A stretch of DNA of 64,000 nucleotides from an uncultured Planctomycetales bacterium (lineage in GTDB: Bacteria; Omnitrophota; Gorgyraeia; Zapsychrales; JAHFFX01): assembly GCA_964612665.1 (NCBI GenBank), contig CAZTCI010000001.1, positions 636,896 to 700,895 on the forward strand, read 5' to 3'. The notes beneath the pieces are model-generated. The model saw only the letters and a program-made list of their open reading frames with translations. It had not been told where the DNA came from and searched no databases. The position numbers and the translations under genes were made by a program. This document shows positions 27,001-48,000 of the stretch, one piece after another (position 1 is the stretch's first letter; each line of letters opens with the position of its first letter).

Positions 27001-30000
27001 GGATGCCGGCATTCATTCCACCCAAGCCAGCCAAAGCACCGCGCAATGGCGTGCGGGCAAGCCCGACTCGGTTAGCGAGGTTCTTAATGGCTTGTTCTAA
27101 TGTCTGCTGTTCAAGATTGGCGCTCGTGATTGACAATTCTGTCGGTGCAACAAAGGCGTCGTTTTTGTTCAAGGCACTTAATTGCTGAACGATTTTGCGG
27201 CGTTCACCATAAACGTTTAATTCGGCATCACGCGCCGCGGCCTTACGGTTCACAATGTCGGTGACTGAGACGTGGGCTGGGTTGCCATTTTGGAAGGCAA
27301 CATCTGCTTCAACTTCTGGTTGAGCAAATTGAGTGATATAGTTGCGTTCCGTCACATTCAAGTTCTTGACATATTGGCCTAAGAGATCTTTGGCGGCCTG
27401 CGTTGTTCTCGGCGAATTAATGAGGTTCTGGACAAAAGCAACATCGCGGTCGATCTGGGCCAAGCGGGCGTTGAAGAAGTTACGAGCACTATCGGCGTTC
27501 TTCGACGGAACCAGAGGCAATTGCGCGAAGTTCGGCGCGGTTTGATTCAAAGCGAGATTGAGAACACTGCTCTTCGTTTCAATAAGCGCATTCATATCTT
27601 TTAAATTGTTAATCTTTTGTTGAAGGACATTTGCCGTTGTCTCATATACAACTGGGCCTTCTGGAACTCTTTGATAACCCATCTGGTCATCCAACAACCG
27701 TTGTTTAAGACGTTCGCTTAAATTGATTTCAGTTCTGACCGCCGCGAGCATACCCTGGGCAACTTGATGCCAGGCGTCTTGACCGCCGGACAAGGTGCTC
27801 TGCGTCTGCCAATAGTTTTCAGCGTCGTGTAATTGCGGAATATATGTATCGAAATACTTAAGTCCGGTGGTGATCTTTTCTTTCGATTCATAAAGATCCG
27901 AGAAATTCTTAGCATCCAATTTTGCCTGCAGATCTTTAATGGCTTGGCTGTTAGCTTCCGATAATTTGTTGTTGGCTTCAATGTCAGATGACTTAAATCC
28001 ATAAATGTCAGCGATCCTAACCTGACCCTCGCCGCTTAAAAGCGTTTTGCCGTTTGTGATGTCCTGGATCCGTTGAGTCAATCCTTGTTCAGCGTTAACG
28101 CCGAAGAATGGAATCGCGGCCTGGGCGGCGATTAATTCTTGCCGCAAGACTTTCTCAAACCCTTCTTTGGCGATCCGGTCGCGGATGGTTTTTTCATATT
28201 GATCATATGGAATGCCTTGTGCTTTAGCATTCAATCTTAATCTTCCTTCAATTAACGTGCGGGCATCCATACCAGCGAATTCTTCGATCGTCGAGGACAT
28301 GAGCTGCATCATGCCAGAGGAATATGTTCCGAAGGCGTCTTCTTTTTCCGGCGAATTCTTAAGCGTTTCGACCAATGCATTTTGTTCTTCATAATTATTC
28401 TGGCGGGCCTTCGCTGTCATATACATCACATTTAATTTATCTAATTCGCTGATCGTCTGCTTGATTGTGGCTTGAAGTTCGGCATTCTGTGAACCGCCTA
28501 ACGTCTCGGCGATGGCTTTGAGTTCTTCAAGCGTGCGGGCGCCCGCGATTTGGTCAACCAGTTTGCTCGCCGCTGTTTCAGCTTCAGGACTGATTGTCAC
28601 TTTAACTTTTGTTGAAACCGGCATTTCATTGACCAAGAACCGTGGTTCGCCAGTCACTTGGTCCGTTGTGAAACCATAAACGGTTTCGCCTGGATGGGTG
28701 GCTTCGTATTCAGCTGTTTCTTTAAAGAGGTTGCGGCTGCGGGCGGCGAGTTCAATAATACCGACTTCTTGACCAGCTTTAAGGCCGCGGCCTTTCATTA
28801 ACAACATCGTCGGAAGTTTACCTTCGGCGTTCTTGATTGGTTTTAACTGGAATACCTGGCCGTTCGGTAATTTCCAAGCCCGCGGGATTTCCATACCATT
28901 CGGCAGGTCACGTGTTGCGGCCTTGTAGACTTCTTCTTCACTGTAATAATACATTGAACCGATTTCAGGTTGAATTTCATGGGCGTAAGGCAAGCGGTCC
29001 GGTTTGGGCGCGAAGATACCGAATTCATTTTCTCCGACGAAGCGGCGGTTGGTCACAACTGGATAACCGCCGGGCAAGGTGTAGGTGCGGACTTTTTCAG
29101 TATCTTCAATAGAAACATCTTGGTCTTTTTCGAGAGGCGTATAAATGTTCTTGAGCGCGGCGGCATCTTTGAAGGCTGACGCGTTGGTCACAGGAACAAT
29201 GCGGCCAGGTTTGGTTGAGTTCTTTTCAAAGACCATCATCAAGCCTTCGATTTCCTCTGGATTCGCGACGTGTAAGAAGAGTCCTTCTATCGCTTTTGGC
29301 AAGCTATAAGTGATGATGCCTAAGACCGGTTTAGTTTGTTCAGCATCGTAATACCGGAGTGTCCAGCCTAACGCAACATCCGCCTCAGCCTTGCTTGCTG
29401 TCATCAAACTGCCATTTTTATATTCGGGCATTTCTTGTTTGGTCGCTGCTGGCATGCGTTGACCTTCATAAATTGTTCCACCCTGAACGATCATATTCGT
29501 CAGCGGATCTGTGACCTGGGCTTGGATCCGGCGGCCTTCGTGATCAACGCCGAGGACATTTTCCAATTGTTGTTGCAAGTCTTCTAAGATTGCGGCAGTT
29601 GGTTGAATGTACACTTGGCCTTTTTCCATCCAGAAGGCTTTCAGTTTTGGATTCTTTTCATCGTGTGTGGCTTCCCAAATCAATTCGCGGCCGTTTTGAT
29701 CTTCGATAAACCGGCGGGAAGTAAAGGCCAGATAAGCGCCTTCTTTGCCATTGGTTTCTTTCAATTTATTAATGTCAAATATATAACCGCGGGCAAATTC
29801 GTCGTCGGAGACGCTTTCATGCTCGCCTTTCTCATTGATGATATCAATCATTTGATCGCCATTGCCTCTCATCACGAGATAGAGGATATTTTTATCTTTA
29901 TTTAAAGCCGCTTCACGGGCAAACAGTAATTCATATAAGCCAGGCACCGGAACGCCAGGATATTTATGTTGCCAGAATTTGACAACGTCTTCGTGTTTGA

Positions 30001-33000
30001 TCAAGTCTTTGAGGAACGGAACCTTGCCGAGTGTTGAATCAATAATCGTTGTGGACACATCATTCAACGCCTTGGCCGGCATGAATTGACGATAATTGCC
30101 GACGTTATAGCGTTCTTTAAATTCATCCTTAGTCAATGGTTTGCCATTTTTATCCATTGGCGCATTGGCGTGGAATTTATCTTGACCCAAGACAAGTGAA
30201 ATTGGGAATGGCAAGCTGTTGGTTTCCCAAACACCACCTTGACGTTCAGAGTCTATATCAGGATTCAATAAGACATTGGAAAGTTCGATCAATTGATTAA
30301 TTAATTCGACTAGACCTAATGCACCGCTGGCCGCTGTGCCCGGTGAACTGTTCAAAAGATTATTAATAATCTTCTCAGCGCCGACGCCCAGATTCAAACT
30401 CTGCAGAATACCAGCCGCTTTATGGTTAATATTAAAGTTCACCGCAATCGGGAAGCCGCCGAAGTTGGCCAATTGAATCGACATTAAATTATGGACCATC
30501 GTTGAGAATGGACCGAAACCGACGCCCGCAGTCACAAGACCTTCACCGGAAGATTTTGATTTCACTTGTTCATTAAGTTGTTCGACGAGTTTCTTGGCGA
30601 CTTCCGGCGTTGACATGTAAGCAATCGCCGGCGGAACGGCGAAGGCGCGCAAGCTGGCTTGAATGATCCCTTCGAATGCTTCAGCTTGTTTCTTAGCGAG
30701 GTCTTCGGGCGATGGGCCTTGCATCAGCGCTTCGATGCGTTTCTTATCTTCTTCAGCGTCGTGGCGGGTCTTTTCTAAGGCTTTCTGCGCTTTGATAATG
30801 GCTTCTTTTCTGTTTTCTAATTCAACGCTATTGAATTTATCTTGTAATTGGTCAAGACGCTGATTGAGCGCAGTTTGTTCTTTTTCAACTGTCTTCTCAT
30901 GTGCGGCCGTCGGATAATGACCAGCCAACCATTCCGGATTGGTATAGCGGTCAAATTCATCATGCAAGAGTTTGGCCAACACGTTTTCGGCATCAACGAT
31001 ATCTACGAGAACAGTCTTCTGGTCTTTGTCTTTAACTTCATTTAATTTTTGTTCGATCTCTCGGGTGATATCTTGTTGCTGCCAGAAGTTGATCAACTTG
31101 TCTTGTTGTCCCATCAGTTTCGCCATGCGGATATCGCGGTAATCTTGCAAGGCTTGCGGTTCGCCAGCGAAAACATCTTCAGCAACGTCTTTGTCCTTCA
31201 ATAATTCGGCCATCTTCTTGCGGGCATCCAGAAGCGTCACTTTCTCGACGGTAGTGGCAGCCGAAGCCGCTGTTTCTGGAGCTTTCTCTTCAATCTCTTC
31301 ACCGGAGGCGACTTTGAAATATTCATCAACGCGGTTTGTACGGTGCGCAATCGTAGGCATGACAAGCGCCATCTTATAAGCATCTTTACCCATGACTTTG
31401 GCAAGGTTCTTAATGAGATTGAAGCTCACCTGGTCAGTTAAATCTTCGCCGTTATGCGTATCACTGTAAGCCACAACCAGGATGACTGCATCATGGGTGC
31501 CCTTGAGAGCTGTTGTGTCGACTTCTTCAGGGACCGCCATACTGATACCTTCTGGGCTGACTCTGACGAATCCGTTACCCGACGGCAATACAAAGAAGCT
31601 TTCTTCAAGACCTTCCCAGGCCATTTGCTTGACAGCTTGGACCACGACGACATCTTTGCCCTGCGCTTTAAGATCAGCCACTTTCTCCTCGGTTGTGCGG
31701 GTGTCAACCGGTTCAGCATAACGTCCGACGGGTATTGAAGCAAATTTAAGCGGCACGTTAATATTCAAGGAAGCCGCAATGATGTTTTGAACATAAACTC
31801 GTGGTTTCTGGATAATGGTCTTTCCTCTAAACTCAGTGACTAATGTCTCCGGAATATAATTGTATGCTGGACCGGTCATATAAGTGGAAACCGCCAGTTT
31901 AATCACCTCAATAGGTGAAGCTTCACCACGCAAGGAGAGTAAACTCTTTTCAGCCAGTCTTAAACGATCTGCGAATATATTTGAGCCCACAAAAACGTTT
32001 CGAAGCGGATTAAAGGCCTCATCAAATGACCAACCGGCCGGAGCGAAATCTTTCCAAGTGCCTTTGGTAATCTGCATTAAGCCGCGCGCGCCCGTCGGAC
32101 TTACGGCATTGACAACAAAATCACTCTCATACTTGATTAACGCTAACATCAATCGTTTGAAATCTTCCGCATTCTTGAGATATTTCTGAACGATGGCGTC
32201 GTGTTCGAATACTTCCTGCATTAATGGCAGGACATCGGCTGGCACGCGTTTGGCCAGGTCAGCAAAGGCGAAGGCATTTTCGGTTTTGATCTCCGGATGC
32301 AACGCTTGTTGATATGTATCCATAACTTCTTTCGATTCGGCCAATGCTTCCGGCGTGCGGGCCGCTTCAACACGGGCAGCAGATTCTTTCTTCTTGTAAT
32401 CTTCTTCATAATCTTTCATGAACTTATCGAACTCTGTCTTGCGTTCAAGATGATTGACCAAGCCGCTAATATCGATCTGCGACGGCAGAAGTAATTTTGT
32501 CATCGGATTAATGCCGGTCGATGCAACAAATTTATCGTGGAGCGTCTTAAAGATTTGTTTGAACTCACCGCTCGTAATATCTTCCGGCGCGACCAGCATG
32601 ATCGCGGCTTCCATCGGTTTAGCCTGATTGAGAATCTCTTTCAAACTTTCAGGCAATGCCGCGGTCACTTCAATAATGTCCTGACGGCTGTTTTCAACAA
32701 ACTTCTTGCTTTCCTCGACGCGGGTATGCTGGGCAGCGGCGGTTTCTTTAGCTTTATTCAAAACAACTTCAGCATCATGCACAGCTTTTTCTTTCGGTGA
32801 CGGCAATGATTCGCCAGCGGCGGCCTTAAAGGCCTCTAACGCTTCGTCATACGCCTTTTGCGCTTTGGCCTGTTCCTCGTCGGCCTTGACGGCTTCTTTG
32901 GCGAGGATTTCAGCGGTATTTTGAATTGTTTCCAACGCCTTATCTTTAGTTGTTAATTGATAGTATTTATTTTTCTCAGGACTAAAGATGACCGCCGACC

Positions 33001-36000
33001 GGCCGCTGAAGTTGATAATCCACGGCAACACCGCTTCACCTTTGGCTTGAAGCAACGCGGCTTCTTTAATTACATTATTCATCGTTGCAACCTGGCCTGG
33101 AATGCCGAGGGCTTTTTTCATGGATTCAAAATATTCCGGTGAGGTCTTTGATAATTCAACCAAGAATTCTTCCATTTCTACCATGTTTTCAGTATTGACC
33201 TTGCTGACAACCGGTGTAAACCCTTCGACTTGGTTTAATAAATCAATCGCCCGGTGAATTTTCATCTGGGCGGTTGTTTTGTAAATCTGGCTAAACTCGC
33301 TAAAGCTGACTGGCTCCGAAACGCCTTTGTCCGTCGCGTAATCATAGTAATCTGAAGTTTTGGTTGCAACGTGAAGTTCAACCGCGTTGCGGCCGGTCAG
33401 TTTTTCATAAGCGATCTGAGTGATCTTTGATTCATGTGCTAATAATTCTTTACCCGTATGGGCTTTATAATAATCACCGACGGAGTTATCAACACTATTC
33501 AATAAATGACGCCCGATGTTAATCAACCCGTTATCGCCTTCCAGAGATTGAACGGCTGGACCAAAACCAATACTCTCTCCCATGTGAACGGCGCCCGCAA
33601 TTTCGAGACCAATCGTTGACAATCCAATCGCGCCCGACCAGAAGGTGATCTTCAAACGTCCTAAGGTTTCAAAGAATTTCTCTTGCCGTCTATGCGCTCG
33701 GCCTTGGATACCGGCTAACTTCGAAAGCAAGTGAATCGGCACGAAGATATTGGCATAGAACAACAGAACCGCCGGAATCGCCCACGCCAAACGCACAGCC
33801 CATTTCTTAAAGAACCGGCCGCCCATTTGTTCTTTAAGGATATTTTCCAGCGAGCGGTTTTCAGTATAGAGATAACCAGTTTGGTAAGCTTGCTTGATGT
33901 TCTCATCTTTCATCCAGTTAACGTTGATTTCTTTTCCGCCGAGGATATTCTTTTCCAAAGACAATGTTTTTAAACTCAACCGTTCAGTTGAAGCGAAGCG
34001 ATAATCGATCAAACTGTGGATAATTGTTTTAACCTGACGGGCCGTTTGCATGAGGAAGTTCAATACAAAGATGTAAGCAATACCGGTTATCTTCGAAGTA
34101 TAGAACCATACAAAAATAGGTGTCAGATAAGGGCTCAACGCATTTAATACGAAAACTGGCAACAGATGAACAACACCCCAACCCATTAAATTCCCGACGA
34201 TAATAAAGCCTTTCTCAATGATTCGGAAAAGAACATACAACGGCGCAACCACCCAGCCCAACATAGTTCCTTGAAGGGCGGCGATCTCAGCCATTACAAT
34301 CGGCGTTAAGATGGCGCTGTAGATCGCCATCGCAATTCTAGATTTAAGAAGTTTGATAGTTCCGTAAACGATCGGATGACGCAAGCCCAATCTAAAGAGC
34401 ATCTTCGCGGGTTTGTCGAGGAGCGGTGCGGCCTTCTCATCTTGCAACGCTGCCTGCATGGCCAGGACCTCCACACGACCGATCGCTGAACCTTCTTCAA
34501 CGCTATGCAAGAATTTGATGATCTGATTGTCCGCTGATCCGAAGAACAGGTATAAAGCGCGCAATAAGAACCAGCCAAAGCCAAAAGGCAAGGCCACCGT
34601 CTTCACGACGGCATTAATCAATTTGTTACCCACATTAAAGTAATTAGTGAAGAATTGCGCAGCGGTGAAGGCATCCTCAATGGCCTGGACGAATTCTTCG
34701 GCGACGCCAATCATAAGGACTTTTGCCCTGAGCCACAACACGCTGAATTGGAAGCGGCCGACGTATTTCGTCGTTTGCGCAGCCCTCGATTGTTGTTCAT
34801 TATTTTGTAGAGGTGAAGCTAAGGCGAATTTATGGAAGAGATAATTGCTGTAGAGTTTCTTTAAAGATTTTTCATTAGCGCTTTGGGCAATCGATTGAAT
34901 TCTTTGTTTGAGTGTTTCATCCGGAACTCCGGCAGCGATGGCTTCTAACCGGCCGCGGATTGTTTCCGCTGTCAAATCAACCGTCCGAATACCGCCCTTA
35001 AAGTTATGGACCATGCTGACCATCAAAGCACGGATCGCCAAACCAAAGACCGTCCAAGCCGCCAAGGCTGTCCATATATAACCAACTGGAATTAACTCGC
35101 TGATGGCTGGGAAGACTAATGATAACCCTACCATAGTAACTGCGGCGGCGATAGCTTTCACCGTCGGTCCAGCGCGATTGAGCCCAGCTGACTTGAGGTA
35201 TCTAGTGAACAAAGTTGCGACTGCGCCAATGGCTAAAAGAATTAACCCGACAGCCTCACTTACACCATTGAGTTTGGATCCAGATGTTTTTTCAACTGTC
35301 GGATGTGAAATCTTTGTTTTTAGATCAACGACGGCATAGTAACCATTTTGAGTAAATTCATACCCGAACCCTTGACCTTCTTGCTGCATTTGAATGAATG
35401 ACTTTTCAAAGAATTCTTTGGCTGTTGGCGTTTCTATAGCAAAATGCACTTCTTCAAATCCGCGCTGGGCCAGCCAATGTAAAATGACGACCAAGAAAGG
35501 ATAGGAATAAACGCCCCGGGCGGTGTTGATCGTATTGAGCAACATTCTAACTACTTTGCTGAAGGCCAAAATGGTAATGTTGTTATAAGCCATCGGTAAA
35601 TGCGGTCCAACAAAATCACGCGACGGCAACTGGCTCAAACGAATTCTAGCCTTAAACCGGCTTGCGCTAACTTTTAAAGCTTGGTAATGGATGTCTGAGC
35701 CGCGGCCATTAAATTGTCCCAAATCTTTCATCTCTGAACCAAACGCCACACGACCAAACTTGGTCAACAGATTTCCATTATTATCAATGTAACCGTTTGC
35801 AACCAAAACTTCCCAAAGTTTATCTATGTCAATGTTGCTTATTTGACCAAGGTTTGTTTTCGTTAAAGGTTTCCCTGCTTTGGATTCTTCTATTTTGATC
35901 CGGCCGGCATCGGGAATGGCAGCCTTTACAATGCTATTAGGGTTGCTGGCGAGTAATTCTTTAAAGAATTCTTCTGCCTGTTCCTTTTCATTAGCGCCGT

Positions 36001-39000
36001 CTAATTTTAACGTCGCTTCTTCATGATTCACACCCGCCACGGCCAGGACCGCCCAAACACCAAACACTGACACCACAATGCCCCAATTGAGGTGTAAATG
36101 GTTCGATGACAGGCTGTCCTGGTTCATCTGATAATTGACTGTATTAATTAATGTGCTGATGGGTAGTAAAGTATGGAACATGCCCAGCATGTTTGGCGCG
36201 TTGGGCTTGATCGTAGAAAGAAGCTGCTTCAATCGTCTCCATAGGGTCCCAAGAACTTCTAAGAGCATTGCGCGTATAAACGCGGCCGGTCTTGTTATAA
36301 ATAAGGAAGCAACGTTTACGGCCGCTGTCCTGGTGGGCAGATACGAATAAGCAATCGTCTTTGGTAAATTCCACAAAATGATCAAAAGTGATTGTAATGG
36401 CTTTGTCCATGGTTGGACTCCTTTCAAGTTGTCAGACACAAGTTGGTTTAAGAGATTAATGATTGAATTAACGAAGGATTTGATAAAAGCAGAAACAGAG
36501 AATCGCTGAATCTTCCCGAGGAGCTCGATTGAGCTTGGGGCGATAACAGTTATTCTCCCGAAGGCTTTTCCTTGGGCTTGCTTTCCGCTCAAGGAACTGC
36601 TGGTTGAGGAGTTAGTGGTTTGAGGAACAACAGTTTTATTCCCTCGTTCGTCGCCGGGCGCTTGGATAAATCCATTTTGGCGGAACTCAGGAACTTCGCT
36701 TTCAGATGAAATACGATTTCCGGCCGCTGTCGTTTTGCTTGTTAACTCAATCGCAGCCTTCTCAGCTGCTGCTTCGACATTGGTCAGAAGATATAAACCT
36801 AAACGAGCCTCGTTGACATTCGCCCGTTGTTGTTTTCCATCTACAGTATTTGGTTGTCTTACTGAAAGGGTACTGCTAAGAACAATTTTGTTAGATTCTT
36901 GACCACTTAAGGTCAGAGCTCTAACAACTTTTTCCCAGAGCATTCTGATAATCGCCAGAGCCTGCGCCAAGACCAGATATACGCTGAGAACTGCATTCAC
37001 CCTCACCGTTTCAGCGTTGAGAGTGTTATTCGTCACAATAGAGTTGTTGCTAAGAACGATTGCAGGCGTACCTTCTTCTTTCGATTCAGGTAAACCAGCT
37101 AGAGTCTTGGATTGTTTTTCCTCAGTACTGTTGCCTTGAGGATACACTCCTTGACCCTTTAATGCTTCATCTCCCTTATCTCGTTTCACATTTTCAGTGA
37201 AGCTTGATCCTGGAGCGAACACACCTTCTAACGGAACATTACCACCATTAGACCTTACTGTTGGTGATTGTGATTCTTCAGGTCTTAGGGTGTTAACTAC
37301 TTGTATATTTGTCGATACAGTTTCTACACCCTCAGTTCCAGTTCTTACGACACTCTGGGCGACCGAGGTTATAGCGACTATGCCGACAAGGCTGAGAATT
37401 ACATTCGTTGCACGACTGCTTAGAACATTGACCAACTTGACCGCCAATGCGATCAAGAGTTTGTTCCAGTTTCCGCTTGAGCTTGCACTCGCACGTACTT
37501 CTAGAACCTTCGATACTGCATTTTCTCCAGCCTCATTTCCGTTACCGGATGCTGGAACCAGATACGCTGCAGAACCGACGTCTACTTTCTCATTATTACT
37601 CTTAGAGGTATATTGAGTTTCCTCTTTATAGTCTCCTCGAGCCTTTGTTGCCACACTTCTTACACCTTTAACTCCACCTGAAACACCTTGTTCCAGAGAA
37701 GCCAAAGCTATATTGACTGCTGCAACGGTACTTCTTACTGCATTTACTGCTATACGACTCAGAACGCTTAATAACGACTTGTTTGTCGCTTTCGCGACGA
37801 TCCTTGATGTCTTCGCAGCCACGCCTTCAATCAATTGCTTGATCGAAACGCTTGCTTGCAGAGATCTCAAGAACTTGTTCCAGGCTCCATTTGAGCTTCC
37901 GCTCGCTTGGACTCCAAGTACCACTAGATTTGCCGTCGGCTCAGCTTTGGCTCTGTCACCAGATACCTTGACCAAGCTTTCAACATTTCCTGTGAACTGC
38001 TTTACTGCTTTAACGAATCGATCCAAAACCGTCTTTAGTACCTGCACTAATCCCATCAACCATGAACCGATGAACGGCAACATGACAGCGTTGACAGTTT
38101 CTGTACCTGCATTGAAGCGATTCGAAGAACGATTTACTGCTGTACTGCTCTTTACGATAGACGAACTTGCGTTCGTTTGTTTCTTTTCTGTCGAGCGAAC
38201 TGATTTTACAGCCGCCTCTTTGGTAGCTTCGACAGACTCTCTACCATTGAGACTTTCTGTCAGCACAGCTTGTGTTGCCGCCGCTTTAACTTCACTGACA
38301 GGGCCGAAGTTATTGCGACTAGACATCGGTTCTGGTGTTACGACCGCAGCTTCAGCCGTCCCGACATCCACTGCCCTGCTGAGACCGCGTGCCGCCGCTT
38401 GAACAACCGTCGCTACGACATTGGCAGCACCTGTGCCGAAGAGACGTACAACTTGACCTAACTTTGTCCACGCTGTGCTTCCTTTTACTTCTCCCACTGC
38501 CTGCTTCGCTGTGGAGCGAAGGGCAGCGAGAGTAATGCCGGGACTTTCGGCGCGCTTAGCTTTCATGCCACGCTGGCTCGCCTCATTTTCCCCCTTAATT
38601 TTTGTGAAATCTGCTTGTGTACGATTAATAGATATAGTTGTGTTGGCTGCAACCGCCAATTGGGCGTTGTAATTTGTACTAACAATTACTTTCGCGACAG
38701 GATTGGGTGTGATGCCTAATTTTTCAACAGGTGTGACTTGTTCCGTCGGCGCACCGCTTGAAGGACCAGGCGCTGGCGGTGTTCTTCCGTCGTTGTTGCC
38801 TCCGCCGCCAGATCCGCCATTTCCTTCATCAGGAAGCTCACCAATCAATTGAGCTCCTGGGAAGTTATATGCTAAAGGCGGTGTGGTGGCTGGAAGATTT
38901 TCATTTGAATTAAAAGGAGATCCTTGTGCTTTTTGAGAACCTGACATAGCGACTTGTATATCTTCATGATGTCCGTGAGGAAGCAAACCAAGGATGAAAC

Positions 39001-42000
39001 TTACGAGATTTGGCAATAATTTGGGCGCTGTTGGTACAATGCCTTCTGGCATCGCGTTGGGGAGCCGAAGATTTTCATTCGCGGGAACATTCGGCGCCAG
39101 CGTCGGAGAAACGTTCATCGATGGCGAAGCCGGCATGGTCGCAGGCACTACAGGCTGAGGAACCGCGTTTGCTGGCTGTTGTTCATACTGGAGCTGAGCG
39201 GGCGGATTCACAGCTTCGGTCTCTGATGTCACATCTGGAGCTCCGCTCAAGGTAGCGGCTGTTAATGCCCCAGCCACAACTTGTTTTAATCTCGATGGAC
39301 GTTTTTTACTGTCAGACGCTTGTTGTTGAGCAGCCTTAACCTCAAAAGCTTTTTCATTTTGCAATTCTCTTGTGAATTGAGCGTCTTGAGTTTTTCGACG
39401 GGCTTTATCCAAAACAGTTGTTAATTTTTCACCAATCGGAATCGGAGCAAAAAACGCGTTGGTCCGTTGCGCCCGAGAACCGTATTCCCGCAAGATTCCT
39501 TCTTTTTCGTCTTTGAGAAATCCTTTTGCTTTTGAGTAATCAGTCACGCCTAACGGCAAACGGTTTAAGGCCGCCAAACCAAAGTTCGCGGTAATAAAAT
39601 TAAAATGATATGGAATTAACCAGAAAAGCGTTGTGCTCGGCCCGTCGGAGATGGAGATTCCGGTCCAATGACTGGTCGCCCAGGCCCCGCCAAATAATAA
39701 TAAGTTTGTAACCGGGCCGGCCCGGGCAATATTACTGCTGGCGCGTGACTGTTTAGATATGAATTCTCTTCTTTCTTGGCTGGTTAAATTCTTAACATCG
39801 ACTGAGGGATGTCGATAACTAACTTCAAAATTCATAATCCCCGTTGATGTTTCCGTCGGCGTTAACCCATAACGCACAACCATGAACTGATGGCCAAGTT
39901 CATGAAGCAAGGCGCTGCCAGCAATGATCGCCAACCCCTTCAAACCATAAGAGTGGAACCACATCACACCCGCGCCGAGTGTTATTGATTTAAGTACAAA
40001 AGGCCCGCCGATATACGGAAACCGAAGCTGCGGCAGCCGCCATGGCGATTCCATGACTAACAAACTTGGCTTCTCCATTTCAAGCTCGGCTGATTTTGGC
40101 TGACGGAGGGTATAACGGCCGATATCCGCCAATGTTTTACCAATTGAACGCGGTTGATAAGCTTGTTCGATGCTGGTTCTTTGGCTTTGAGATTGTTGTC
40201 GCGGTGTGGTCAAATTCTTAAATGCCGCTGCCGTTTCTTCCATAGCATTTCGATAAACCGAACTCAAATGCGTAGACTCCGGTGTTACACCGACGGCAGC
40301 CAATGATGCTTCGATAGCTTCGGGAGAAAGTTCTTCGCGGTTGGGCTGATTCGCCAGCGCGTTAGCCAAGGTATCGATTTGAGAATTACCTGTAGCTGTG
40401 GTTCCATTTTCATTAACGAAACTTTCCTTAACCGCTTGGGCCAAGCGGGCGGCGTGTTCGGTCGTGCGGTTTTCAGTTCCCGTCGGAACGGCAGACAAAG
40501 CTATATTCCAAAGACCCGAATCAGTTAATGCTGATTGGTGGACAAAAAGCGTTCCTGTTGTCTCATTAAAACTAGATAAAGCTTGATTATCAGAGGAAGT
40601 AACAACTTGAATGCTTCTGAGCCTTATTCCGACGGGCTTTGCCTCAACAACTTTTTGGAGAGCAACCAATTGTTCTTCATCCGCGCCACTAACCGGTATA
40701 ATCAGCTGACTATGTTTCGCAATATAATCTTCAGTCGCCCCACTAGCGGCTAACTGTTCCATGTGTTCTCGGCTTTGAACAATAACAAACGGGGTCTTAC
40801 GCCATTGCTGAACATACTGATCAGCGGCTGTATTGATTTCTGTCGGAATTTCTTCAATAGCTTCTGTGACAGTAATCTCTCCTTTACTAATTAACTCCCC
40901 ATAGTTAGCAAAGACCCTTTCGCCGGCTTTATATTTTGCGTAGGTATTCAAATCATTGGCGTTCTTAAAGGTCACCATATGTTGTTTATAGAGGCCATTT
41001 AATTCTTTAATAACCGCTAAATTCTCATTGACATACTGCAGCGAAATCTCCCATCCCGACGGGAGATTTGAAGCTGCTGCCCTCACAGCCAGCGCATTGA
41101 AATGAGCCGGCTCACCCGCGGCCATCTCGATAAATCTCTTCTGGCTTGCGTTATCAACTGGAAATTCTCTCTGGGCCTGTTCAACAGCATCTTTTGCCGA
41201 CGGGAGTTTCCAGTCCAAACGGCTGGTTAAATCATCACCCAGTTGATCGCGGATCAAGTTATAACGGTATCGTGTCTGACGGCCGGAACCTTTAAGCAAG
41301 TTTGTCAGGTTTTCCCATTTATTGTTCTTCCCTAAAGGAATCACCCCGCCTTTTTTATCCTGCCGCTGGTTGACATATTGAGCTAACTGCTGTAAATCTT
41401 CCGTCGTGACATAAGAATTCTGATAAAGATAATTACGGGCCGCTTCGGCGATGTTATTCCCTGGCTGTAACGTTAATAGAGATCGAACATATTGAAGCGG
41501 ATTGTTGGCCACACGGGCAATGTCTTCAATTGGTTTTTCGGCCCACTTTGAATCTTGCTTCAGCAATACATTGTTATAGATGTCATCAGCACGGTTAATA
41601 TCCGCAATACGCGCGACCTCGTCATTAAAACCGAGTACTTGCGCGAATTTTATCGTCGGCAATGATGAAACCCCAGCGGCTCGTTTCATTGTTTCCAATT
41701 CATTTGGCGCCGGGTTTAGGGCCTTGAAATAAGCTTTAGCGCTAAATTTTTGCTGCTTTTCGCGCAAGATATATTCAGGAACATTAACAGCGGCGCCCAG
41801 TTTAGACACACCTTGCATTCTTTGTTCAAAGTCTTGCTGTTTACCGCGTTTTTCCTGAATATTGTTTAACTTCGAATCCAAACCTTTTTCGGTAATATAT
41901 TTTTGCCATTGCGTATAAACGCTATCACTCGACGGAACACCCAAGGCCTCGGCAATCTTAAGTGTGGCCAGATATGGTGTCTCTTCGTTTTGTTTGAGAA

Positions 42001-45000
42001 TGACGCGTAATTCAGGAATGGAAATTGTTCGCGGTGGTTGGCCGGGCACTGTTGGGACTCTCTGTTCCCAGAAATTAACCATCGCAGCGAGCCGACGCGC
42101 CTCAGATAAATCAATCAGCCCCCGATCAACCAATTCTCTAGCCATGTCAAAGGCACTGCTCGTGGTTATCTTTTCGTCGGAGTTTCTAACAATTGACCTT
42201 CCCGTCAAAGCGGAAAGTTCATCAGCAACTTCGTTGGGAGAATGCTGGATCCCTAAAGTAATGTTCAAAATCGCGCGGCCGTTTTCATCTAAAGTTTTGC
42301 CTTCAACCGTGTAATAATTACGCAGGATTTCTTTTTGTTCGTGCGTTAATCCAGGATTAAATTCCTGCGGGAAATATTTATCAAGTTCTCTGTCGGTCGC
42401 GCTCACAATATCGCTAGCCGGTGTGGCGGCCCATTGCATAAACGGTGACTGCGCGTAATAAGACGTAATTGTCGACGGAAGAATTTCCTCACCCAAGGCC
42501 TTGGCCACCGCCAAAATTTGACGGTGCGCGAATTCTCTCTCCGCGAAGTAAGGACTTCTGGCAACTTCAAGGAAGTGATTCAAGTTTTCCAGCGTCGGTT
42601 CAATGGTTTCAAATTGAGTTTGTTCTTCAATCATCTGCTTTTGAGCAAAATCGAGAAGCGCTTGAACACGGGCCAAAGTCTCGGGACTCATGTTGTTGGC
42701 CTTGCCGCGGTCACGCAGTGTGCGCCACATCGCGATTGTTCCTTGCCAATTTTGCTGAGAAGCTTTTTTGACCCACTCAAGACCGGTCGACGCGGTTTTC
42801 TCAGATTCCTGTGTATCGCCATAAAAACCGTTACGCTGTTCGACCATCACTTGACGGACCATTTCTTTGTCTTGGTCCGTTGTTGTATCAAACAGTTCCT
42901 GGATATCTGATCCTTGACGAGAATTTAATAAAATCTGACGGATGGTGTGCTGGTTGGAACTGGAACGCTGCACGAGTTGCAGGTAATCCGTGACCAGTTC
43001 AAGCTGGTCGAGCGGATTGACGGCTTGTCCTTCTTTCGATTGGCGCTCTAATTCGATTGCTCTTTCTGCTAGACCTACAATTTCTTCGTCCTGGCTGTAA
43101 CTCAAAAGCATACGGCTGTCGTTATTAATATGTTTGAGCAGTTGATCGAGGGACGGTTTGTCAGACAAGATAAATTTGGCACCGGCGGTCGATCTATTTT
43201 CGATGCGCCAGTTGCGGTTGACCGCATGTGTTAAATCAGCCGTCGGCCAGTTCTGGGCGTTAACGACGATGACATCAAAATTTCCTTCTGGACTGAGTTC
43301 CTTGGCAAATTCGGATGAGGCAATGACAACTAGTTTTTCGGTGCCAACGTTCTTAATAATACTTTTGTCAGGAGTCGATCCGTCGACCAAAACCACTCGG
43401 ACACCGCTGTCTTTAAACTTGGCGGCTAACTCTTCATAGGTCTTTTTGCGCAAATTGGTTTCGGCCACAAAAATCAAACTGCCGATGCCTCCGTCTTTAA
43501 CACCGTCAGTATTCTTAAATGGTAAAGCCCGCGCCTGCTCGATTAATGTTGTCAGCTGTTCAGTAAGATCGGGTCTCTGTTCAACATGCTGTACGAATTT
43601 GCTTACGGATTTCAATTGATCTTTAGTTAAGTCCTGTTTTCCTTCTTCCCGCAACTGCCTATACAAATCTTCATATGTTTTTTCGTCTCCCATCAACCTA
43701 GCTTGCTTAAATACATTACTTTCCTCGCCCACGTCTTTAACATCAATGGCCCCAGTCTTGGCCAACATGATGGCCCTGGCGCCGGCCTTATTGGCCGTGG
43801 CCCCGATAACCGCTCCGCGTCCGCCGAACATTTCTTGCAGCGGATTTTCCCGAACAGTGTCGCCGGAGACGGTCATGTTATCAAGTTTTAACTGATCTTC
43901 CTCCGCTTTACCCTGGTTATACATCTTCGTCGCCGCGACTTTGAGCGCGACGTTACTGAACAAAAGATCGGATTGCAAACGGCCGGCGCGATCCGTTAAA
44001 ACCAGTTCTCCTTTTTTCTTATCAACATCCAACCGCAAGCCTAACGGTTCAACAATCCCGCGGATCACATTGTGGACCAAGGCCCTTGGATAATCTTCAA
44101 AGTCCTTATTCACCAAATCTGATACAAGCAAATCTTGATGCTGGCCGGGTAAAGAATTCGCCGCCATCGGCGCTAACCAAACAATGCGCTCCGTTGATTT
44201 ACGTTTTTCATATTCTTCCCGGTCTTGAGTAAATGCAATTGGCAGGGTTTCATCGTCGGAAGCTTCTTCTTTTTTGCCAATGATTCTTATTTTCTTGTAA
44301 AGTTTTTCAGCTGACTTACGAATCTGTTTGACCACCGGATTGTTCTTAAGCGCTGTGCCTTCTGACTGAATAAATGTTGTTTCCAATAAGAGAAGATCGT
44401 CGGCTTCATCGAGAATCGTGACACCATCATTTTTAATTTTCTCAAGGCCTTCTAAAATCCGTGGATTATAGAAGAAGCGGTTGGGCATGTGACCGCGGTT
44501 GTTAAGAGAAATAACAACGAGCGTTTTGGGATTGTTCAAAGCGTCGGCGATTTTTTCTTCAATTTCTTGACGCTGTTTCTCCATTAAGGCTGGATTGGTA
44601 TTAAAATCGCGTAGTATCTTATCGTGCTTGCCAATCAACTCATCTAAATCGACAATCTCAAATTCTTTGTTAATGGCTGCTGCCATTGTTGGATAACTTA
44701 CATCAAGTCCAGGCGGCGCGTCGGGGCTGGTATATTTTTTAGAATCCTCAGGACTGCGGGTGATTATGGTTGCATGCTGGTCTCGTTTCATAAAGGCGAA
44801 GGCGGCCATGGCTTCGGCTAAAGTTTTTCCAGCGGCGTTAGGGGCGACAGCGATATTCAGATTGGTTAAGGCTTGAGTGATTTCAATTTGCTTCTCAAAT
44901 AGATCTTGGTCAATGCTTTTGCGATTAAGCTCAAAGATTATTTTGGAAATAGTTTTATCAAACTCGAATGGCTGACGGACAGGGGGCTGCAGGCTTTTCC

Positions 45001-48000
45001 CTATATTGATCGCATTCAATGCATCGAAAAGCGTCTCAGCCGGGTTAACCAGTACAGCGGCGTCAGCATCGTCAGTGCGCGGAGGCAGTTGTTTAGAGGC
45101 AGGTCTTGCAGGAACAAGTTTACGTTCGCTCGACAGCCTCGACGGTGGGGCGCGAGCTTCTTGTAACGTTCTTACCGGTGTTGAAATCGGCACGGCCGTT
45201 TCGCGTACATTGTTTGTTTCTTCATTTTGCGGTGATTGCGATTGAGTCCGATTCTCAACAAACTTTTCCAAACTGAATTTATCTTTAAGCTCTTTAGCCT
45301 GGCTGCTTTCTAAAGAACCAGCCAATTTGATCAACGTCTGGCGATTCTTTGCATCTTGAACCATCGCCGGTGTTACAAAAGTCATGGCAAATTGAAATGC
45401 CTGTTGACGCGAACCTTTTTCTAATATTTCCGCAATATCTATTTCTTCGACGGGTCTGCTGCTGACCTCGAAAGCAGCACCGGGGATCACGGGAGAACTT
45501 GGAACACCAACGGCAGATGTTTTTGATGGCTCTTCGGTTTCTTCTTTGGTCGTCTTATTCTTTCCTACGCCAAGCAGACTCAGGAAGAAGCCAAATAAGG
45601 AAGCGTCTTTACTTGTTGACTCTTTCTGATGTTTGGCCACTACATTGGGCTGTAACGCCAGCGACGATAATTCCCGGGCAGACATCTTGACAACTTCAGG
45701 ACGGACGGAAACAAATGTTTTACCTTCAGCCTCGAATTGATGCACTTGAATCGGTCCAGTTTGCTGTGGATTCACCACAATCGCATTGATCGAATGACTT
45801 ACCGATTGAATTTCTGGACGATCCTGCAAAGCGCTCATCAGAGTTGTGGCTTCTTCAGATGAAAATTCTTTAGAATTATATTGAACCATCTTTAATTCCG
45901 ACGACGAAGTGGTTACAGGAACCTCTTTAATGTCCGACGCTTGGGCCACCTCAACATCGGAAGTTGATGAAGTCATAAATCCATGCGCTATCAGATATTC
46001 GTCAAACGAAAGTGACGATTGATCTTGAGGAATCTCTTCATGTTTTTCACCTAAGAATTGAAAAGCTTTAGCCATTCCAACCGCACCTGCAGTCTTTAGT
46101 AAATCTGTCCAAGATTGGTCTTTATTCTTAAGCTCTTCCTTGGCGACACCGATTATACCCAATGAATCTTTCACTGTTGATTCTCCCGTCGCCGCTGCCC
46201 GCAATAATCTAGGATTAAGAACAAGGATTCTCTTTGAATCACCGCTCACCAACACAATACGGGCGTCTTTATCTTGGGCGATCTCGCCGCTAAACACCAC
46301 AGCATCAAAATGTTTCCCATCACCCATCCGGCTCACCAACTCCCCGTATAAATCATCGTTCATTTGAATTGGAACAAAAACTTTATGGTAGAGAGTTTCG
46401 TTATTTAACCGATACAAATCGAATTTATATTGCGGACGGTCTTTGTTTTCTTCAATCGCCGATGTGTTGGCATTATTAGAATTATTGGCAAACGGGCTGA
46501 AAAGCGCTTGATCAAAATTTCGGTTGTCGGTGATTTCAGCCAGGATCGGCTGTGATTGCGGCCTGGCTTCAAGATAATCCGGCGCGACATAAAGGATACT
46601 CTGCGGTCCGCTAGGTCTTTGACCTTGGCCTAAAATGACTTTTCCGTCGGGTAAACCCTTGTCCACAACGACCGCGTCGATTCCAGTTGAAATGTTTAAG
46701 CGTGAAATGTTCTCTCTTAAATGATCGGCCTGTTCCACCTCTACTGGAGAAACCGCAAAAATAGGAACCAATGGCAACTCAGCTTGATTAGATTTCGAGA
46801 TATCGATCGCGGAACGTAAAACAGGTTTTTGATCAGTGGTCATAATCGGAGAACGGCTTGTATCTTCGATAAGAAAAGCTGAATCTTTTTGATCAATAGC
46901 TGCGGCCGTACGTTCAGCCGGTTTTTCTTTTCTTAACGCAGGGTTCTTGTCTACAACGTTAAAGACAATTCCCCCATTGTGGTCGATATTTTGGACCGTT
47001 AAGGTTGCGCCGGCTTGTTGAGCCAAGTCAACGACCTTTTGAGCAAACTCTTCGGCTTTGGTCCCATTCTTCGAAATCGTATCATAGCGGACATACATCA
47101 ATCCGCCGGGTCGCACGACGCGGACAAACTCATTGAAACTATCGATGACTTTGGCAGTCCCGCCTTGGTCACTGATCCACTTAAACAAATCAATCACTGA
47201 AAGCTTATTGACGGAGTTGTCAGCCAAAGGAATCTTGGCGGCGTCAGCATTTAGTAATTCAACATTCTTAAAACTATTTGCGTTTTCTTCGTTGGAACCA
47301 GACGATGGATTTTGTTGATTGACGATTTCAGAGACCGGCCGGTTGAGGAGTTTGCTTACATCAAAGTTTGTTTTTTGAGACAATTGGGCGATGATTTTTT
47401 CTTTTTGGTCTGCCGGCGCTTGAGCGACTGTTTTTAGAATCTCCCGCACAAGCGGTAGATTTAAACTCGATTTATCCAAATAGATTGTTTTCGCACCTTT
47501 GACGGCAGAAACAGCTGTATACGAACCAGGACCTCCGCCGACATCTAAATAAGTATCTTCCGGTCCAACATTTAACGCGTCAGCTCCCAATACCTCTTCC
47601 GCTGGAATGGTGCGTGAAAGTCTCAACTGATCAACACCGTTTGATGTAGCGCGGTTAATCTGACGTGGGCTCGTTTCTGAAATCGCTGAAGTTTGATCCT
47701 CAGAATTTATTAACTCGGCAAAGTCAACATCTTGACGCGGTTTCTCACCCACCACCATTCCCAAAATCTGCCCGCCGATGATTTTCTCGGCGGATTTTTC
47801 TTTCTTGGATAAAACGGGCAAGCTCGGCAGCGCTTTGGTATCGAAAGGCTCGGCTTCTTGCAACATTTTTTCATACGGAATTTGGCCGTTGTTCATAACT
47901 TGATGCATCTTAATTTCATCTTTAACATCTTCGGCTTTTTGGTCCGCGCGTCCACCGAGAACACTGAAATCCATATTCTTAACATCTTTGTTGTTTAACT

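Follow-up and report, generated by a model that had tools for sequence, protein, structure and literature searches.

What kind of protein places a methyltransferase, a DEAD-type ATPase, a zinc metalloprotease and a lytic transglycosylase on one polypeptide? The question is raised by a 64,000-nucleotide stretch of contig CAZTCI010000001.1 (assembly GCA_964612665.1, positions 636,896 to 700,895; hereafter the window), in which these four modules lie at window positions 31800-47620 of one very long open reading frame (ORF), equivalent to residues ~5461-10734 of a protein longer than 21,333 residues. An initial annotation called the combination the hallmark of the polyvalent proteins of mobile elements, and it also pointed to a giant cell-envelope machine that should be compared with the giant ORFs of the Omnitrophota. 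The second idea is borne out by the sources of the homologues and by the domain repertoire, and we hold it highly probable that the window is an internal 21,333-residue piece of a giant, inner-membrane-anchored multi-enzyme protein of the Omnitrophota 'Archaeovorin'/multi-enzyme type. To our knowledge, no predicted polypeptides are longer than the giant proteins of the Omnitrophota.

The minus-strand frame that starts at window base 64000 contains no stop across 21,333 codons (window 2..64000) and is open at both ends, which marks it as the interior of a giant gene; none of the other frames is open over more than 256 residues. Residue i is encoded by window bases 64000-3i+1 to 64000-3(i-1), and every feature described below lies on this minus (-) strand. 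The frame is further distinguished by its cysteine content, with three codons (residues 17876, 18293 and 20607) where position-specific base composition predicts ~290 and each other frame contains 485-956 TGY triplets, whereas the composition is otherwise ordinary. Relatives of the protein are nearly cysteine-free too (0-6 cysteines per 1-7 thousand residues). This frame-specific avoidance is a sign of protein-level selection and, together with the finding that every domain match along the window falls in the one frame, it argues against an artefactual ORF. An artefact could take the form of an assembly chimera, a non-coding open frame or separate genes fused by sequencing error, and the window does show neither a start nor a stop codon; a tested exact 50-mer from the window is absent from genome and metagenome collections, so that no independent assembly confirms the ORF, and one low-coverage relative is called as a string of adjacent genes. 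Against this stand the stop-free run itself, the single shared frame and the cysteine deficit, as well as collinear ORFs of at least 6,950 and at least 7,399 residues on independent contigs and published accounts of such genes, with peptide evidence for one of them. We regard an artefact as exceedingly improbable.

The ATPase was initially described as helicase-like and placed at window 44.0-44.9 kb. Its location and its Walker A and DExD motifs stand, and that the module has a superfamily 2 (SF2) fold is certain; the helicase label does not survive, the module being SecA-like by both profile and fold. The extent was also underestimated: the divergent DEAD motor occupies residues 6361-7100 (window 42701..44920) and is followed by a conserved extension that reaches to about window 41200. 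Walker A (APNAAGKT) is found at residues 6386-6393 (window 44822-44845), Walker B (LDEAD) at residues 6530-6534 (window 44399-44413), a VIGATAN segment resembling the GMTGTA motif at window 43790-43810 and a conserved NRNxR at window 43205-43219. Pfam alone returns a sub-threshold DEAD match for this segment (20.9 bits, cutoff 26), and an NCBIfam search returned no match for either the ATPase or the protease segment. A ribokinase match obtained with the ATPase segment by single-sequence phmmer against the PDB was dismissed as chance.

Word-index homologue searches with the ATPase, protease and transglycosylase segments retrieved nothing, and the relatives were found only by an exhaustive HMMER search of 1.84 billion representatives, which recovered 16 homologues of the ATPase module at identities of 42% or less. 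Their alignment (A1) conserves N-x-x-GK[TS], RGH[LM]P, DExD, TxxENP…G-x-[TS]A[TN] and NRNxR. When the A1 profile was compared with the PDB, the best match was SecA2 (4uaq, E 7.9e-5), followed by SecA1 (1nkt, 0.005), with Mfd and RecG weaker; the pieces aligned to SecA are collinear and comprise Walker A, the DEVD, the GMTGTA region and nucleotide-binding domain 2 (NBD2). An AlphaFold2 model built on A1 (mean predicted local distance difference test score, pLDDT, 74.4; predicted template modelling score, pTM, 0.67) adopts a two-RecA fold in which Walker B is followed by a beta-rich insertion and NBD2 by long helices. Foldseek comparison of this model with the PDB placed SecA or SecA2 in all of the top 24 positions (E 4e-11 to 1e-6), ahead of LGP2, RecQ5 and RapA, in alignments that cover ~750-900 columns without residue-level mapping of the PPXD or the scaffold and wing domains. 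Three lines of evidence thus favour a SecA-like motor, an assignment we consider likely. The extension (residues 7101-7600, window 41201..42700) is conserved in the related loci L002, L005 and L003 described below and in the related sequences P0001-3, P0011 and P0017; a low-confidence model of residues 7081-7620 is all-helical (pLDDT 55.7) and had no fold match.

Like SecA and SecA2, the motor combines a two-RecA DEAD core with Walker A (GKT), Walker B (DEAD) and a 'GxTAT' segment equivalent to GMTGTA; its beta-rich insertion follows Walker B, where SecA has its PPXD, and long helices follow NBD2 in both. The resemblance has limits. Identity to SecA is only 10-13%, motifs V and VI are replaced by the family-specific A-x-P-x-x-A-K and NRNxR, the window copy falls short of Pfam SecA_DEAD and, instead of forming a free protein of ~900 residues, the motor sits ~6,300 residues into a giant chain. 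The SecA-type domains of published giants are said to lack scaffold and wing domains (bioRxiv 10.1101/2023.11.21.568195).

The sources of the homologues point in one direction. Ten of the 16 were looked up: eight are 'partial hypothetical proteins' of metagenome-assembled genomes (MAGs) of Candidatus Omnitrophota, one comes from a MAG labelled 'bacterium' and one is an ENA protein. Eight of the ten fill their whole contig (for example, 4,890 residues on a contig of 14,671 nucleotides), and such homologues are pieces of giant ORFs. Across all 16, the entries are either partial hypothetical proteins or ORF pieces that take up an entire contig, with Candidatus Omnitrophota MAGs the source of nearly every one. 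When GTDB species genomes were scanned with a pattern, four loci emerged, L002-L005. The first belongs to Ca. Zapsychrus exili, of the phylum Omnitrophota, and holds an ORF of at least 6,950 residues on a 111.5-kb contig; L003, L004 and L005 are from MAGs labelled 'uncultured Planctomycetales', and the 22.2 kb of L005 that were examined are a single ORF. The relatives lie on MAG contigs of 111-186 kb, whose examined parts are filled by the ORF. Scans of a metagenome contig collection for related loci were empty.

One further relative has a different appearance. On L001 (ENA contig ctg287574, 2.78x coverage), the 4,551-residue P0002 is part of a run of adjacent genes on the same strand, separated by tiny gaps or overlaps, one of which has a Glucan_synthase match. 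This run has the look of one giant ORF that sequencing errors have interrupted in an assembly of low coverage.

The neighbouring methyltransferase bears on a different view of the ATPase, in which it would be a nucleic-acid SF2 helicase or translocase working with that enzyme in DNA modification or anti-restriction. The class I S-adenosylmethionine (SAM)-dependent methyltransferase that had been proposed at 47.1-47.6 kb is confirmed at residues ~5480-5690 (window 46931..47563) by a Methyltransf_11 match above the gathering score (E 2.7e-8, 34.8 bits against 21.2), by a Methyltransf_25 match (27.2 bits, cutoff 27) and by motif I, LDVGGGPGS, at residues 5485-5493 (window 47522-47548), which is followed by an insert of ~60 residues. 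Its weak NCBIfam matches are all to small-molecule methylases of the UbiE/MenG/ArsM type. A weak PADLOC match to mad2 (E 3.5e-6), the window's only hint of a conflict system, would suit the pairing with a helicase, as would the weak Pfam DEAD/DEAH matches of the motor (the 20.9 bits given above, and 3 of the 14 members of its family), the presence of Mfd and RecG among the weaker profile matches and a separate, bona fide DEAD/ResIII helicase upstream of the motor in L002. The comparisons that discriminate between the two readings nevertheless go the other way. SecA2 and SecA1 head the profile matches, through collinear pieces specific to SecA that include the GMTGTA region, and SecA structures take all the leading Foldseek positions. 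The methyltransferase is of the Methyltransf_11/UbiE type, the DNA-methylase motif [DNS]PP[YFW] has zero occurrences in the 21,333 residues, and ~700 residues separate the two enzymes. In addition, no relative that we examined has a methyltransferase beside its motor; because the enzymes upstream of the motor differ between L002, L005 and the window, the methyltransferase is not a conserved partner of the ATPase. A coupled helicase and methylase is accordingly improbable, and we retain the SecA-like motor.

Downstream of the motor, the M50-like HELGH protease that was noted at 39.5-40.1 kb carries the full signature of a site-2 protease (S2P) and matches its profiles. This putative intramembrane zinc metalloprotease spans residues ~8019-8165 (window 39506..39946). 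HELGH itself is at residues 8033-8037 (window 39890-39904), within a hydrophobic helix and with GPVTN next, and the motif for the third ligand, NRLPLGVTD, is at residues 8146-8154 (window 39539-39565), the predicted zinc ligand being Asp8154. Pfam Peptidase_M50 (PF02163) matches with E 1.4e-5 and 25.0 bits, for a gathering score of 27.2. The orthologous segments read HEIGH…NLLPIPAFDG in L002 and HEIAH…NLLPIPGTDG in P0017, and both score above the Peptidase_M50 gathering threshold, with a best E value of 5.1e-14. Single-sequence phmmer of the window segment against the PDB gave no match; a profile of the three sequences reached the solved site-2 proteases RseP (8e-4), Methanocaldococcus jannaschii S2P (MJ0392; 1e-3) and SpoIVFB (0.07), and the alignment to the M. 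jannaschii enzyme covers both motifs. On this basis, the module is very likely S2P-like. It shares with RseP, SpoIVFB and MjS2P (7w6x, 3b4r and 8vjl among the structures reached by the profile) the HExxH in a hydrophobic helix, GPxxN and N-x-x-P-x-x-x-x-D, whereas it has 'DY' in place of the usual 'DG', only weakly hydrophobic helices and neither PDZ nor CBS accessory domains. Unlike known site-2 proteases, it is also fused in cis to a translocation-type ATPase and to possible substrates. Two further HExxH strings in the protein, at residues 324 and 20009, have no family support.

The fourth module is firmly identified. Pfam SLT (PF01464) matches residues 10605-10715 (window 31856..32188) with E 8e-13 and 48.4 bits (gathering score 21.3), and the ES...GLMQI...AYN motifs that had been claimed at 31.8-32.2 kb are in place: YESDF at residues 10624-10628, GLMQI at 10640-10644 and AYN at 10712-10714 (window 31859-32131), with Glu10625-Ser predicted to be catalytic. 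This GH23-type lytic transglycosylase domain is 37% identical to the SLT domain of the L002 giant ORF, its best NCBIfam match is the Borrelia flagellar-assembly lytic transglycosylase BB0259 (1.9e-7) and it also matches endolysin/transglycosylase families of PHROGs. Specialised lytic transglycosylases of envelope-spanning machines, such as those of the VirB1, EtgA and FlgJ type, provide the natural comparison. The window domain resembles them in its GH23/SLT catalytic domain with Glu-Ser, GLMQ and AYN and in being tethered beside a membrane machine, and in the relatives an M23 endopeptidase accompanies the SLT domain, a pairing also seen in some flagellar systems; the M23 domain was sought in the window and not found. 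It differs from the VirB1/EtgA/FlgJ type and from BB0259 in belonging to the same polypeptide as the machine it would serve, and no secretion-system or flagellar genes are visible around it within the window.

The modules are arranged around two clusters of transmembrane (TM)-like segments, which were located by a Kyte-Doolittle scan of 19-mers only, with no dedicated topology predictor. The extensive membrane-spanning regions foreseen by the initial annotation are real by this measure: 48 non-overlapping 19-mers have a mean Kyte-Doolittle value of at least 1.7. Residues 1-7,950 contain no 19-mer with a mean of 1.5 or above, and none lies between the methyltransferase, the ATPase and the protease. 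The first cluster, between the protease and the SLT domain, has ~9 strong and several weaker segments (residues 8636-10096, window 33713..38095); residues 10,200-15,100, a stretch of ~5,000 residues that starts with the SLT domain, are TM-free; and the second, dense region has ~39 strong segments (residues ~15143-21236, window 293..18574). The idea that low-complexity linkers and a TM helix separate the modules is thus right in part, since linkers rich in P/A/Q and in G/P are present just after the protease, at residues 8254-8294 and 8379-8422 alone, whereas the single helix is in fact ~9 TM-like segments, all of them between the protease and the SLT domain. From the N-terminal side, the chain presents modules that depend on cytoplasmic cofactors (HATPase-like, degenerate GGDEF, SAM methyltransferase, SecA-like ATPase), then the M50 protease, the first TM cluster (some 9-12 helices in all), the stretch that begins with SLT and the second TM region.

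This arrangement is not peculiar to the window. The architecture of the relatives was established from BLASTP and Pfam. In L002, the SecA-like motor (residues 3313-4511) is followed by an M50-like segment (4632-4753), TM peaks (4864-5943), M23 (6493-6596), SLT (6649-6742) and a last TM helix (6911), which lies 40 residues before the stop codon, so that M23 and SLT are enclosed between the TM cluster and that helix. L005 has the motor at residues 3334-4511, TM peaks at 5538-5800, SLT at ~5980-6130 and M23 at ~6346-6424, and then a homologue of window residues 11314-11761. In L003 the motor is again followed by a TM cluster; Pfam found no domains in that locus. The order of soluble region, SecA-like motor, (M50), TM cluster and murein hydrolase(s) therefore recurs in independent relatives, with the hydrolase pair running M23 then SLT in L002 (L002:19480-20230, residues 6493-6742) and SLT then M23 in L005. 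What precedes the motor varies: a DEAD/ResIII helicase in L002 (L002:~3880-4300, residues 1295-1434), Fic/DOC and PRTase-CE, domains typical of toxin and conflict systems, in L005 (residues ~808-850 and ~1393-1606), and HATPase, GGDEF and methyltransferase modules in the window. The murein hydrolase, and in part the S2P, are conserved with the motor and the methyltransferase is not, and the cytoplasmic part at the N-terminus looks like a variable 'cargo' zone. Beyond the L002 giant, the next ORF downstream (451 residues, cut by the end of the locus) has no Pfam match.

With the modules identified, the comparison to polyvalent proteins can be made directly. Those proteins are encoded by phages or conjugative elements (Iyer et al. 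2017; PMC5512222), and their hallmarks include a SWI2/SNF2 ATPase together with a DNA adenine methyltransferase (LPD36), a soluble zincin metallopeptidase (MPTase) hub and ArdC-N (PMC5512222). The claim that the four-module suite is diagnostic of them fails on its enzymes: the ATPase is SecA-like and lies ~700 residues from a Methyltransf_11/UbiE-like methyltransferase, so that the pair of SNF2 ATPase and DNA adenine methylase is missing, and the four-module region has a single HExxH protease, which matches M50/S2P, an intramembrane family, in place of a soluble zincin-like hub. No ArdC-N or LPD module was detected in the protein, although LPD36 was not specifically searched for. In tblastn searches, residues 5461-8260 had no match among 50,697 phage and 72,556 plasmid records, IMG/VR viral contigs contained no related locus, and the SLT domain was the only match to PHROGs in the protein. 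A genuine polyvalent protein or its giant derivative, borne by a phage or conjugative element and delivered into recipients for counter-defence, would explain why unrelated enzymes (metallopeptidase, transglycosylase, methyltransferase, SF2-type ATPase, GGDEF-like) share a chain, in superficial likeness to an Acetonema example (PMC5512222), and the Fic and PRTase-CE domains of L005 are typical of conflict systems. Beyond the missing hallmark modules and the lack of similarity to any phage, plasmid or IMG/VR record outside a PHROGs match confined to SLT, the ~48 TM-like segments and the length of more than 21,000 residues would appear incompatible with packaging or with transfer by a type IV secretion system or phage tail; the word 'transmembrane' is absent from the defining paper (PMC5512222). 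We judge this origin very improbable. The resemblance that is left, several unrelated catalytic domains on one polypeptide, including a metallopeptidase that possibly processes the chain, is a fair analogy in its many-enzymes-on-one-chain logic; the differences are the type of ATPase, a methyltransferase that is not of the DNA-adenine kind, the intramembrane protease, the TM-like segments, a size more than 10 times larger and the absence of any observed link to a mobile element. A co-occurrence of 'MTase + helicase + HExxH + SLT' is insufficient for a call of polyvalent counter-defence, and the present case guards against that mis-annotation.

A closer parallel is offered by the giant genes of the Omnitrophota. 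According to West-Roberts et al., full-length giants encode numerous TM regions, and the majority code for divergent SecA DEAD domains that were suggested to export the giant itself; the 'Archaeovorins' among them contain methyltransferases, peptidases, GGDEF and, less commonly, SLT (bioRxiv 10.1101/2023.11.21.568195). Nielsen & Lui describe PF08241, PF02518 and signal peptidase II in multi-enzyme giants, an architecture cluster with PF07517, and TM helices or signal peptides in 94% of multi-enzyme giants (bioRxiv 10.64898/2026.06.07.730766). Giant ORFs occur widely among the classes of Omnitrophota but with poor conservation (Seymour et al.; PMC10066038), the giant protein of Velamenicoccus archaeovorus having 39,678 residues, and the literature places a locus resembling a type II secretion system upstream of such genes and pilZ and carbohydrate-uptake genes downstream. 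The window matches this description in its ORF, of which at least 63,999 nucleotides are open with both ends beyond the window, in its numerous TM regions (by the Kyte-Doolittle count, a crude method) and in an embedded, divergent SecA_DEAD-type domain whose homologous modules are found solely in Omnitrophota-type ORF fragments. Its domain set comprises methyltransferases, peptidases, GGDEF, a sub-threshold HATPase_c, signal peptidase II and SLT. As in the published giants, an ORF of tens of kilobases alternates dozens of TM helices with long TM-free stretches, Pfam domains are sparse and divergent, and most of the sequence is unannotated. Identity to the database sequences searched is at most 42%. 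The window protein is, then, a highly divergent new example of the already published giant multi-enzyme membrane proteins of Omnitrophota. What it adds to the class is modest: a conserved core of motor, S2P, TM cluster and murein hydrolase, and near-total avoidance of cysteine. The M50/S2P beside the motor, the M23 partner of SLT in the relatives and the cysteine avoidance go unmentioned in both preprints on these giants (bioRxiv 10.1101/2023.11.21.568195; 10.64898/2026.06.07.730766).

The remainder of the window holds several smaller features. A GGDEF-like domain with the degenerate signature FGDEA (residues 4764-4873, window 49382..49711; E 4e-6, 27.1 bits, gathering score 23.8) may, to judge from that signature, be a non-catalytic domain or a divergent cyclase. 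Further towards the N-terminus, a sub-threshold HATPase_c-like segment (residues 3427-3523, window 53432..53722; E 7e-4, 20.4 bits against 26.4) has weak matches to sensor kinases in NCBIfam and agrees with the module of signalling type that has been reported for giants of the Omnitrophota. The repeat arrays mentioned in the initial annotation come down to one, visible at the protein level and outside the four-module region: ~8 units of ~115-130 residues that are 25-30% identical (residues 13129-14057, window 21830..24616), in the TM-free stretch after SLT and with no Pfam match. At the nucleotide level, Tandem Repeats Finder (TRF) detected no tandem repeat anywhere in the window. In the same stretch, an unannotated segment (residues 11314-11761, window 28718..30061) is conserved in L005 downstream of its SLT domain (26% identity over 477 residues, E 5e-25) and may, by this similarity, be a further part of a conserved extracytoplasmic core.

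Two domains lie within the second TM region. A second Methyltransf_11 domain (residues 17918-17986, window 10043-10249; E 5e-6) is in a loop of the dense region, with one of the three cysteines ~40 residues upstream. A domain resembling signal peptidase II/LspA (Peptidase_A8; residues 18860-18992, window 7025-7423; E 3.9e-15) carries the conserved motif FAYNVAD; the three cysteines were considered as lipoboxes for it and rejected, their sequence contexts not being lipobox-like. The G+C content at window ~10000-22000 falls from ~0.45-0.48 to 0.36-0.39, matching TM-rich residues ~14,000-18,000, and probably reflects the codons for hydrophobic residues rather than foreign DNA.

How might such a chain operate? 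In the scheme we propose, the SecA-like motor on the cytoplasmic face would use ATP to push the downstream part of its own chain into or across the cytoplasmic membrane, either through SecYEG or through its own TM cluster; a role in self-export is possible, and we put it forward tentatively. The S2P-like protease and, further along, the LspA-like protease could cut within membrane-spanning segments, in chain processing or anchor clearance. The SLT domain would sit in a long loop outside the cytoplasm, with a TM cluster as tether at either end, and an extracytoplasmic location is its more probable one. There it could make local cuts in the glycan strands of the cell's own sacculus and so allow the huge extracytoplasmic part to be accommodated or to pass through. 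The methyltransferase would be a class I enzyme of the small-molecule or protein type, uncoupled from the ATPase.

The target of the transglycosylase is the part of this scheme that faces the main competing view. The protein could have the same giant identity and yet use its SLT domain (with M23 in relatives) offensively, displayed or released outside to digest the wall of bacterial prey or hosts as the cell attaches. The literature proposes such a function for these giants, and attached cells show an increase in peptides of the V. archaeovorus giant (PMC10066038). The window domain also opens a TM-free stretch of ~5,000 residues with a repeat array, long enough to pass beyond the envelope, and matches endolysin-type families of PHROGs. 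Its position speaks for the cell's own wall instead: it follows the last TM segment of the first cluster by ~500 residues, in a loop closed by the second TM region, and in L002 the enclosure of M23 and SLT between the TM cluster and the terminal helix is a membrane-tethered, periplasmic position. Pfam scans of the window detected no outer-membrane translocation module or adhesin domain, and the one cultured relative preys on an archaeon without murein. Local action on the sacculus of their own cell is how the specialised lytic transglycosylases that serve flagella and secretion systems work. We consider the offensive reading unlikely; that the domain acts on the cell's own wall rather than on a prey wall is, taken as a statement by itself, evenly poised.

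For the identity as an Omnitrophota-type giant and the general scheme of export, processing and wall remodelling taken jointly, we lean towards acceptance. Several observations weigh against it. The window copy of the M50 domain is just below the Pfam threshold, with weakly hydrophobic helices (Kyte-Doolittle 1.2-1.3), and M50 was not found in the relatives L005 or L003, nor the methyltransferase in any relative examined. Pfam scans of the window did not find the glycosyltransferase, HEAT, NUDIX (and TPR) domains typical of Archaeovorins. The assignment to the phylum rests on homologues, three of the related MAGs are labelled 'uncultured Planctomycetales' and the window holds no marker or flanking gene. 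The TM parity between the motor and SLT is not settled by Kyte-Doolittle hydropathy, the sole estimate of topology, and translation as a single chain, export and cleavage are predictions made from sequence.

The window is a well-resolved example of its class, in which the modules around the first membrane crossing follow an order common to independent relatives, and it therefore offers specific residues for three questions: Lys6392 and Asp6531 of the ATPase for self-export, His8033, Glu8034 and Asp8154 of the protease for processing and Glu10625 of the transglycosylase for peptidoglycan cutting, all of them candidates. A bolder interpretation, which we think speculative and on balance unlikely, is that the block running from motor through S2P and TM cluster to murein hydrolase works autonomously as a 'self-export and self-processing' cassette, the giant being a membrane polyprotein. 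If so, the built-in ATPase would thread the downstream segments of its own chain, the built-in lytic transglycosylase would open its own sacculus and its own intramembrane proteases (M50 and LspA-like) would cut the chain into working pieces. Cysteine avoidance would then adapt the protein to an export in which tens of thousands of residues travel unfolded, and these giants would use a cis-acting secretion mechanism without described precedent.

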